Positions 59,199 through 64,000 of a stretch of DNA of 64,000 nt are shown here, piece after piece (within the stretch, counting starts at the first letter, position 1; each line of letters starts with the position of its first letter). Origin of the DNA: Escherichia coli (lineage in GTDB: Bacteria; Pseudomonadota; Gammaproteobacteria; Enterobacterales; Enterobacteriaceae); assembly GCF_003334255.1 (NCBI RefSeq), contig NZ_QOWU01000013.1; one strand, 5' to 3'. Made by a program: the position numbers and the translations under genes. Below the pieces are notes generated by a model, which did not search any database, was not told the origin of the DNA, and was given only the letters and a program-made list of their open reading frames with translations.

Positions 59199-62100
59199 AT
59201 GTCTTCAACAAATGCGCATCAAATAAAAAATAATGATCAAAACTCTTTATGTGGTCTGGGTGACAAAATACGCCGCCTGACCGCCGGAGTTTGTTTATTT
59301 ACACAAATTTTTTTCCCCGTCATGGCGACGGCACAAAATGTGGTACATGCTAAACCTCAGACGACAGTTTCATCTGCCCCCCCTCTAATAGAAAATAATA
59401 CTGTGCCTTACACGCTTGGTGCGCTGGAATCAGCGCAAAGCGTTGCTGATCGATTCGGTATTTCACTGGAGGAGCTTCGTCGTCTTAATCAGTTCCGTAC
59501 TTTTGCTCGCGGCTTTGATAACGTGCGCCAGGGTGAAGAGCTGGATGTTCCGGCAACAACCTTGCAGAAAAGTCATGAGCAACAAAATGCCGTACCGCCT
59601 GCGAATGGCGAAAACACGCTGGAGAATCAAATAGCCAGCACTTCGCAGCGAGTTGGCACCCTGCTTTCACAAGATATGAATAGTGAGCAGGCCAGCGGCA
59701 TGGCGCGTGGTTGGGCGTCTTCAGAAGCCTCAGGCGCGATGACTGATTGGTTAAATAACTTTGGCACTGCGAAAATCTCTCTGGGTGTGGATGAAGATTT
59801 CAGCCTGAAAAATTCGCAATTCGACTTCCTGCATCCGTGGTATGACACACCTGATTATCTGCTCTTCAGCCAGCATACCCTTCACCGAACAGACGATCGT
59901 ACCCAGATCAACACCGGTTTGGGCTGGCGTCATTTCACCCCCAGCTGGATGTCAGGCATCAACCTGTTTTTTGACCACGACCTGAGCCGCTATCACTCCC
60001 GCGCGGGTCTTGGCGCAGAATACTGGCGTGATTATCTGAAGTTGAGCAGCAACGCTTATATCGGCCTGACTGGCTGGCGTAGCGCACCGGAATTGGATAA
60101 TGACTACGAAGCCCGCCCGGCCAACGGCTGGGATTTTCGCGCGGAAGGCTGGTTACCAGCCTGGCCACAACTGGGTGGAAAACTGGTCTATGAACAATAC
60201 TATGGTGATGAAGTGGCGCTGTTTGACAAGAATGATCGCCAAAGTAATCCCCATGCTATTACCGCGGGCCTCAACTATACCCCCTTCCCGCTTCTGACTC
60301 TCAGTGCGGAACAGCGTCAGGGAAAACAAGGTGAAAATGACACACGTTTTGCCGTTGATCTAACCTGGCAACCCAGCAGTTCAATGCAGAAACAGCTTAA
60401 CCCGGACGAAGTGGCCGGACGGCGCAGTCTGGCCGGTAGTCGTTATGACCTGATTGATCGCAACAACAACATCGTTCTGGAATATCGCAAGAAAGAGCTG
60501 ATTCGCCTGAGTCTGCTGGATCCGGTGAAAGGAAAGTCTGGAGAAATAAAACCGCTGGTTTCCTCGCTACAGACCAAATATGCCCTGAAAGGCTATAACA
60601 TCGAAGCCGCTGCGCTGGAAGCTGCCGGAGGTAAAGTCAGCACGTCTGGAAAAGATATCACGGTTACGCTGCCAGGTTATCGCTTCACTAACACTCCAGA
60701 AACCGATAATACATGGTCGATAGACGTTACCGCCGAGGATGTAAAAGGGAACCTGTCACGGCATGAACAAAGCATGGTCGTCATTCAGGCTCCGACATTA
60801 AGCCAGAAAGATTCTCTGTTATCCGTTAATCCGCTAACCGTAGCTGCAGATAAAAAATCGACGACCACATTGACCGTTACTGCGCACGATTCCGACGGAA
60901 CTCCGGTGCCGGGGCTGGCGCTGCAAACCCGCAGTGAAGGCGTTCAGGATATCACCCTGTCTGACTGGACAGATAACGGTGATGGTAGTTACACACAGAT
61001 GCTGACCGCCGGAACGACATCAGGTTCAGTAACACTGACGCCGCAAATTAACGGTGAGAGTGCGGTAAAAGAATCCATTGTCGTTAATATCGTCCCTGTT
61101 GTCTCATCCCGCGACCATTCATCAATAACAATAGATAACGTATCGTATTATGCCGGAGACGACATCAAGGTTAGGGTGGAACTGAAAGACGACAGCAATC
61201 AACCGGTTGCATATCAAAAAGAGGAATTGGTAAAAGCCGTTACTGTCGAAAACAGCAAACCTGGCGCCACGATTGTCTGGCACGAAGAGCAGCCTGGCGT
61301 TTATACCGCGAATTATCCGGCCCATAAGCAAGGGACAGCACTAAGGGCACAACTTAGCCTTCACAACTGGAATGCTCCACTGCAATCGCATATTTATAAC
61401 ATTGAGGCAAACCAGAATAAGGCTCGCGTCGCCACATTATCAGCGACGAATAATGACGTTTACGCCGATAAAAAGACATTTAATACCCTCACGATCAACA
61501 TCACTGATGAGAGTGATAATCCCCTGACAAATCATCAGGTCACCTTTAAGAATGAAAAAGGAAGCGCGGAGTTTGTCGAACCGCCGCAGCAAAATACGGA
61601 TGCATATGGTGTTGCCACAATCAACATGGTAAGTCAGGTTGCGGAAGAAAATACGATTAGCGCCACGCTGCCAAATGGTTTCTCACAACGGATAATTGCG
61701 AAATTCGTTAGCGATTCGAGTACGCCAAAATTCAAACAACTGGTTGCCGATCCAGATACCATTATTGCTGGCAACAGCCAGGGCAGTACTCTGACCGCCA
61801 CCGTCACAGACTTTCATAACAACCCATTAAAAGATATGAAAGTGAATTTTGTGGCACCTGGTGGTTCGCAACTGGACAACACGACCGCCACAACAGACCA
61901 GTCCGGTATTGTGCGAGTGCACCTGACCAGTTCAAAAGCTGGTAGCTATTCCGTCGATGCCTCGCTTGAGGCGGATAAAAATATTCACCAGTCGGTCACG
62001 ATCACCGTGGTCCCAAACAGGGAACAATCGGTAATGACCTTAAATGCCGGGTCAGGCAGTGCGATCGCTAACAATACAAATACCGTTATCCTGACAGCCA

Positions 62101-64000: not shown

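Follow-up and report, generated by a model that had tools for sequence, protein, structure and literature searches.

What is encoded at the end of this E. coli sequence, where a long reading frame opens downstream of yjiJ, and do that frame and its neighbors form a small host-interaction island, as a sequence-only reading had suggested? The window, which here means the whole stretch of 64,000 nucleotides that was analyzed, stops inside the frame. Translation of positions 59199 to 64000 of the plus strand yielded 1,600 codons with zero stops and no frameshift, confirming that the frame stays open from its ATG to the last base. The start codon (59199-59201) is the one also chosen by RefSeq, and the GGAAGG motif that had been proposed as its Shine-Dalgarno sequence is indeed present just upstream. 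The six-frame ORF list contained no entry of at least 80 aa beyond 58988, the end of yjiJ, because ORFs running off the end of the sequence go unlisted, and the lack of a stop had been correctly blamed for this absence. Consensus scanning of the upstream region for promoters and terminators gave matches at chance level, including a single weak sigma-70-like site (59003-59032) that was no better than chance. The features at the start of the gene are as follows.

58989-59198, plus strand: intergenic region between yjiJ and iatD, 210 bp, GC content 0.35, presumed promoter or regulatory region
59188-59193, plus strand: Shine-Dalgarno-like GGAAGG, with a 5-nt spacer before the iatD ATG, from direct reading
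59199-64000, plus strand: iatD coding sequence, codons 1-1600 of 1746, from the open frame and from nucleotide and amino acid identity

We are highly confident that this frame is iatD, a gene for a type Ve inverse autotransporter adhesin of E. coli, at its usual locus between yjiJ and kptA. A megablast search of 5,426 complete E. coli genomes with positions 56800-64000 of the window found 100% nucleotide identity in many of them, among them S88 and ATCC 11775, the type strain, and these identical records carry the RefSeq label "iatD: inverse autotransporter IatD". The gene of ATCC 11775 is 5,241 nt long and encodes 1,746 aa, and is followed on its 3′ side by kptA on the opposite strand and then by yjiH, yjiG, and iadA. 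The last 146 codons (about 440 nt, with the stop and the tip) thus fall outside the window, and from the identical records the 3′ end of the gene is expected to be intact in this strain. Over the 1,600 residues compared, the window protein differs from that of ATCC 11775 at one position (F313L). Compared with the reference IatD of strain SMS-3-5 (EcSMS35_4876), it is 98.25% identical, with 28 substitutions and not a single indel over 1,600 aa, which places it within the range of more than 98% identity reported for IatD orthologs (PMC6714894). The chromosomal position agrees as well, with yjiJ directly upstream and the kptA side lying outside the window, and the same neighbors flank iatD in ATCC 11775, SMS-3-5, O157:H7, and six other strains. 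Since no IatD-specific model in the NCBIfam library matched the window protein, the name is based on sequence identity, chromosomal position, and the RefSeq label. The description of the protein as giant holds in a relative sense only, because the full protein of 1,746 aa is of medium length for an inverse autotransporter of E. coli (YeeJ 2,359 aa and IatC 2,934 aa; PMC6714894).

iatD is already known: besides its RefSeq annotation, it was named, cloned from SMS-3-5, and phenotyped in 2019 by Goh et al. in mSphere (PMC6714894). In SMS-3-5 the gene has the same locus and the same domain order, and the protein has the same 1,746 aa as in the records identical to the window. The 28 substitutions are scattered, and two of them, A60P and P61S, interrupt in the SMS-3-5 allele a run of C residues in the DNA. 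These and the other substitutions imply nothing functional.

The order of elements that had been read from the letters, from a signal region through LysM and a barrel to Ig-like repeats, proved right, and the domains can be assigned as listed below.

59199-59333, plus strand: putative extended signal region at the N-terminus, about residues 1-45, from reading by eye
59409-59552, plus strand: probable diverged LysM, predicted to be periplasmic, residues 71-118 (Y71-P118), from a family profile
59640-60497, plus strand: inverse-autotransporter beta-barrel translocator and linker, residues 148-433, from Pfam and solved barrels
60498-60815, plus strand: probable barrel-proximal Ig-like domain, equivalent to intimin D00, residues 434-539, from the NCBIfam intimin model
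60816-63830, plus strand: ten tandem Big_1/Invasin_D3 Ig-like modules, residues 540-1544, from Pfam and a self-HMM; modules 1-5 at residues 540-632, 642-730, 746-837, 847-938, and 947-1042, and modules 6-10 at residues 1051-1141, 1151-1241, 1244-1337, 1347-1438, and 1448-1544
63831-64000, plus strand: start of an invasin D4-like domain, residues 1545-1600, from the near-identical ATCC 11775 record

The putative signal begins with the basic stretch DKIRRL, continues with the hydrophobic TAGVCLFTQIFFPVMATA, and is likely to be cleaved after ATA (ATA-Q). The segment that follows is probably a diverged LysM, with support at the family level. On its own it scored 15-17 bits, below the Pfam LysM cut-off of 20.9. 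The support comes from a profile built from the same segment of seven inverse-autotransporter homologs and loci, which matched the solved LysM structures 4uz2 (2.5e-10), LytE (5.5e-9), and 8rhe (6e-5) and, weakly, the intimin LysM 2mpw. All seven homologs in the profile matched Pfam LysM, with a best value of 8e-7, and the segment is 84% identical between IatD and the protein of the yeeJ locus. Designed helical-repeat proteins (dTor, CAP repeat) headed the PDB lists for the segment; these were disregarded as sums of weak matches to repeated helices. An AlphaFold2 model of residues 51-152, made with no alignment, contained two helices at a mean pLDDT of 60 and was too poor to use.

For the barrel, residues 148-423 correspond to Pfam IAT_beta (PF11924) with an E value of 1.6e-108 and a score of 362.9 bits, where the cut-off is 22.3, and residues 185-430 match the solved barrels of Y. 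pseudotuberculosis invasin (4E1T, 1e-81) and of intimin from EPEC/EHEC (4E1S, 2.6e-67). The barrel had been called as being of the intimin/invasin type, and these matches bear this out. Two features of type Ve proteins, an N-terminal 12-stranded IAT beta-barrel ahead of the passenger and a C-terminal passenger of tandem Big_1 domains, are both present.

Behind the barrel, residues 434-539 probably form an Ig-like domain like D00 of intimin, as the NCBIfam intimin model aligns to IatD through about residue 530; the Big_1 self-HMM did not pick up these residues. For the rod itself, Pfam reported Big_1 in 8 stretches (401.6 bits) and Invasin_D3 in 9 (299.8 bits), and the self-HMM, built iteratively from the repeats of IatD, resolved exactly ten modules of about 92 aa, each with an E value between 1e-24 and 1e-35. 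At least ten such modules had been counted by eye between about 60.8 and 63.8 kb, in good agreement with this result. They had also been described as diverged at the DNA level, and this was confirmed in that their pairwise identity is 16-40% (median 24%) and Tandem Repeats Finder detected no DNA-level tandem repeat in the rod.

The window does not reach the remainder of the D4 domain or the predicted C-type-lectin-like tip, which extends to residue 1746; both were taken from the full-length protein. Pfam Invasin_D4 scored 26.3 bits on IatD of ATCC 11775, just short of its cut-off of 27. The last 500 aa of full-length IatD are colinear with domains D1-D5 of Yersinia invasin (1CWV) at an E value of 8e-25. 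The mature protein has two cysteines only, Cys1660 and Cys1742, the first of which aligns with the Cys of the invasin CQGSD motif, where IatD reads CHAKND. This invasin residue is Cys907, disulfide-bonded to Cys982, and Asp911 of invasin is needed for integrin binding; the position aligned with Asp911 is an Asn in IatD.

How IatD relates to the better-known members of the family bears on whether it is a gene of its own and on what its tip may bind. YeeJ is built of LysM, barrel, Big_1 rod, and lectin-like tip in the manner predicted for IatD and shares a biofilm phenotype upon over-expression. The N-terminal translocator (433 residues) is 79% identical between the two proteins and nucleotides 199-1994 are about 77% identical to yeeJ, and the top NCBIfam match of IatD is the IatC model NF040978. 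These observations could be taken to mean that iatD is an allele or a recombinant of YeeJ or IatC. The IatC score of 1,126.5 bits is far under the equivalog-domain cut-off of 2,400, however, the passenger shares no more than 37% identity with that of YeeJ and is shorter (1,746 versus 2,359 aa for the whole proteins), the yjiJ-kptA locus differs from the loci of yeeJ and iatC, and genomes hold iatD and yeeJ separately, and it is hardly conceivable that iatD is not a separate gene. IatC belongs to the same family at a different locus, and the translocator module of iatD and yeeJ possibly reflects shared ancestry or shuffling. Intimin is likewise a type Ve protein with a LysM and Big_1 domains, but iatD lies outside the LEE and its product has no known Tir partner. 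The intimin model NF033627 aligned to the barrel region alone and scored 366 bits, where its cut-off is 1,400, and Pfam did not find the Tir-binding C-terminal domain of intimin in IatD. FdeC, whose Ig domains (4E9L) match IatD at 1.2e-28, occupies another locus, and Goh et al. describe it as having neither LysM nor lectin tip (PMC6714894). With invasin the likeness extends from the barrel to the four most distal Ig-like domains and the tip, where the Cys pair is conserved, and together with the Pfam Invasin_D3 and Invasin_D4 matches and the absence of the intimin C-terminal domain it could indicate that IatD is a true invasin, whose tip binds beta1-integrins and triggers uptake, rather than an adhesin for biofilm or colonization. 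We consider this quite improbable, given the Asn at the integrin-binding position, the low identity of the tip to invasin, and the finding that over-expressed IatD bound no ECM proteins (PMC6714894); IatD additionally has seven or eight Ig-like domains more than invasin.

A further question about this iatD, which we read as a separate adhesin gene, is whether the copy is alive, as the gene decays readily elsewhere. The relevant position lies near the 5′ end.

59377-59383, plus strand: C7 homopolymer, codons 60-62, in frame in the window; C8 in the O157:H7 lineage

The O157:H7 annotation marks iatD as frameshifted, with C7 changed to C8 at codon 60 and a stop at codon 67; with the frame repaired, no further defect was seen. 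Exact matches to an 88-mer with C8 were obtained in 284 genomes, and every sampled row was of O157:H7 type; its C7 counterpart in the same background occurred exactly in 21 genomes, including O55:H7 RM12579 and O157:H7 PV15-279. In other lineages the C run is interrupted (CCGTCCCC). A role of the poly-C tract in phase variation was considered and set aside as the main explanation, since 284 genomes with C8 against 21 with C7 and an interrupted run elsewhere fit a frameshift fixed in one lineage. About half of the iatD carriers (O157:H7) are frameshifted in the poly-C tract, and a few strains have IS2 or IS1203 in iatD; in N18-04097 the gene carries IS2 and is otherwise 100% identical to that of the window. 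These losses, and the report that the protein was undetected in wild-type SMS-3-5 (PMC6714894), are what would favor a dead copy in this strain as well, either disrupted past position 64000 or inactive in some other way, as it is in O157:H7. This is nevertheless very improbable. The C7 tract of the window is in frame and followed by an uninterrupted coding sequence, dozens of 100%-identical records have the intact 5,241-nt gene, and each of the six non-O157 alleles sampled is likewise intact, at exactly this length. dN/dS across eight iatD alleles was 0.11-0.19 in the barrel/translocator and the passenger alike, and we therefore conclude that purifying selection acts on intact copies of iatD.

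The carriage of the gene could be counted in the same set of complete genomes. Full-length iatD was present in 639 of 5,426 (about 12%) and K-12 is without it, as synteny comparison showed, in agreement with the earlier description of an accessory adhesin locus. Potentially intact iatD was found in about 6% of the complete genomes, which matches the published value of 6% of 126 genomes for complete iatD (PMC6714894). The difference between about 12% of carriers and about 6% with an intact gene is due to the C7-to-C8 frameshift that the O157:H7 lineage has fixed.

iatD does not vary alone, as the two features upstream of it indicate.

54550-56643, plus strand: espX6-type pentapeptide-repeat effector homolog, 697 aa, GC content 0.35, absent from K-12
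56864-58988, plus strand: yjiK (SdiA-regulated domain, PF06977) and yjiJ (MFS transporter, ORF at 57810-58988), divergent alleles

The 697-aa ORF contains pentapeptide repeats (Pfam, 5e-31) and is about 90-91% identical at the nucleotide level to espX6 of O157:H7, which is annotated as a T3SS effector, and its earlier description as an effector-like neighbor was well founded. In K-12, both iatD and the pentapeptide gene are absent, 12 bp separate the end of kptA from that of yjiJ, and ytiA lies directly beside yjiK. The gene order that had been given for K-12 was accurate in placing yjiH and the genes after it downstream, but it missed kptA (yjiI), which lies between yjiJ and yjiH. When the ATCC 11775 region was aligned to K-12 by BLAST, the flanks were 96.3% and 97.5% identical, compared with 80.7% nucleotide identity for yjiK-yjiJ. 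Using positions 54300-64000 of the window as a query and counting matches at 80% coverage or more, we found the whole block of espX6-like gene, yjiK, yjiJ, and iatD in 609 genomes (about 11%), and in every other sampled genome the match was limited to yjiK-yjiJ at about 81%. Identity to the block query was bimodal, with 643 genomes at 90% or more and 4,734 genomes at 80-90%. We therefore conclude that two E. coli haplotypes exist at this locus and that iatD occurs together with the espX6-like gene.

Of the suggestion of a small island, the linkage thus stood, as shown by the 609 genomes with the block, while the classical island did not. No integrase, tRNA, or IS boundaries and no mobility genes were found in the block of the ATCC 11775 region, and the GC content of iatD, 0.49, is ordinary; an alternative chromosomal haplotype is therefore the better description. 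A pattern-based scan of one genome per GTDB species, covering close relatives only and with E. coli representatives lacking iatD, returned paralogous inverse autotransporters only. None of these paralogs had espX6, yjiK, yjiJ, or kptA nearby, and the identity of their passengers did not exceed 37%, so that these species representatives did not reveal where the divergent haplotype came from. One could go further and regard the four-gene block as an old co-inherited functional module, one of two haplotypes with about 19% nucleotide divergence and no intermediates, with a joint role in host colonization and with the poly-C loss of iatD as part of the emergence of O157:H7 from O55:H7. We consider this doubtful, and any joint function of the four genes is speculation.

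As for what an intact iatD may do, the published experiments concern the near-identical SMS-3-5 allele. When SMS-3-5 IatD was expressed in K-12, it was surface-exposed by immunofluorescence, and its over-expression resulted in strong biofilm in static and flow assays, with no autoaggregation (PMC6714894). The same work predicted LysM, Big_1 repeats, and a C-type-lectin cap, and IatD is entered in a review of 2020 among the type 5e adhesins, with "biofilm formation" beside it (PMC7312957). iatD appears to be silent under laboratory conditions. As summarized in that review, YeeJ likewise promotes biofilm and is reported to bind peptidoglycan (Martinez-Gil et al. 2017, via PMC7312957). By homology to intimin, invasin, and YeeJ, the N-terminal signal region would send IatD through Sec. 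The diverged LysM would stay in the periplasm and bind peptidoglycan, its 84% identical counterpart being part of YeeJ, and the 12-stranded barrel (residues ~148-433) would be put into the outer membrane by BAM, with the C-terminal passenger threaded outward through it. About twelve Ig-like domains of the passenger (the barrel-proximal one, the ten Big_1 modules, and the invasin D4-like one) would then make up a rod, and a disulfide-bonded C-type-lectin-like domain would cap the rod and present a binding surface. The secretion pathway, the binding of peptidoglycan, and a specific receptor for the tip are what we infer by analogy with these relatives.

To a gene that was already known, this analysis adds figures for its carriage and intactness in E. 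coli and the linkage of iatD with the espX6-type gene, yjiK, and yjiJ in one haplotype.

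The yjiK and yjiJ genes of the window showed approximately 81% nucleotide identity to the K-12 alleles, whereas the flanks were 96-97% identical. The features concerned, with the divergent stretch also placed in L001, the near-identical record of ATCC 11775, are:

~54212-64000 (L001 9413-19794), divergent haplotype, with yjiK and yjiJ of low identity to K-12 and flanks of high identity
54550-56643, + strand, pentapeptide-repeat ORF of 697 aa, GC 35%, an espX6 homologue by nucleotide identity
59377-59383, C7 homopolymer in the adhesin gene iatD, shortly after the signal region

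Since yjiK-yjiJ identity was bimodally distributed with zero intermediates across 5,426 E. coli genomes, this region, judged from its sequence, is represented in E. coli by two old haplotypes. On its right-hand side the divergent haplotype reaches into the 3′-terminal part of kptA and ends there; this gene is 585 nt long in the haplotype versus 555 nt in K-12. In the gap that separates kptA from the iatD stop, just past the window end, a stretch of ~90 nt (L001 19686-19774) was 79% identical, in inverted orientation, to the K-12 rpnD-yjiR intergenic sequence, and probably represents a short intergenic repeat.

The pentapeptide-repeat ORF, which K-12 does not carry, was ~90-91% identical at the nucleotide level to O157:H7 espX6, a type III secretion effector gene. 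Its length differs from strain to strain, and at least one of them (06-00048) has a frameshifted copy. Carriers of the espX6-type/yjiK/yjiJ/iatD haplotype at 100% identity include the ExPEC-type strains S88 and ATCC 11775.

Over nt 199-1994 of iatD (window 59397-61192), encoding LysM, the barrel and the first Ig-like parts, yeeJ showed ~77% nucleotide and 79% amino acid identity, but identity of the yeeJ product to the remaining IatD passenger was at most 37%. This difference suggests separate histories for the translocator module and for the passenger. The C7 tract seems to be a site of the gene that is prone to mutation rather than a phase switch. In the O157:H7 lineage it is replaced by C8, which shifts the frame, and the run is broken up (CCGTCCCC) in SMS-3-5-type alleles.

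Three further features were found elsewhere in the window:

10450-10863, tandem repeat in the yjjW-yjjV intergenic region, 101-bp unit, 4.1 copies, 95% matches
18717-18803, single tRNA-Leu(CAG) gene
~37800-45400, type I restriction-modification locus (M, S and R subunits), by correspondence with 37787-45375 of the G1/2 record and known from its annotation only

The 101-bp repeat resembles palindromic units of the REP/BIME type. The G1/2 record, otherwise ~99.99% identical, has three tandem tRNA-Leu(CAG) copies (leuQPV-type array), and the window is therefore 236 nt shorter; the lower copy number could reflect a real deletion by inter-copy recombination or a collapsed assembly. In the same annotation only, the restriction-modification locus is adjoined by a restriction endonuclease gene with an internal stop and by a BrnT/BrnA toxin-antitoxin pair. 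Going by the annotation of this near-identical record, window ~37800-45400 corresponds to the variable 'immigration control' neighbourhood.
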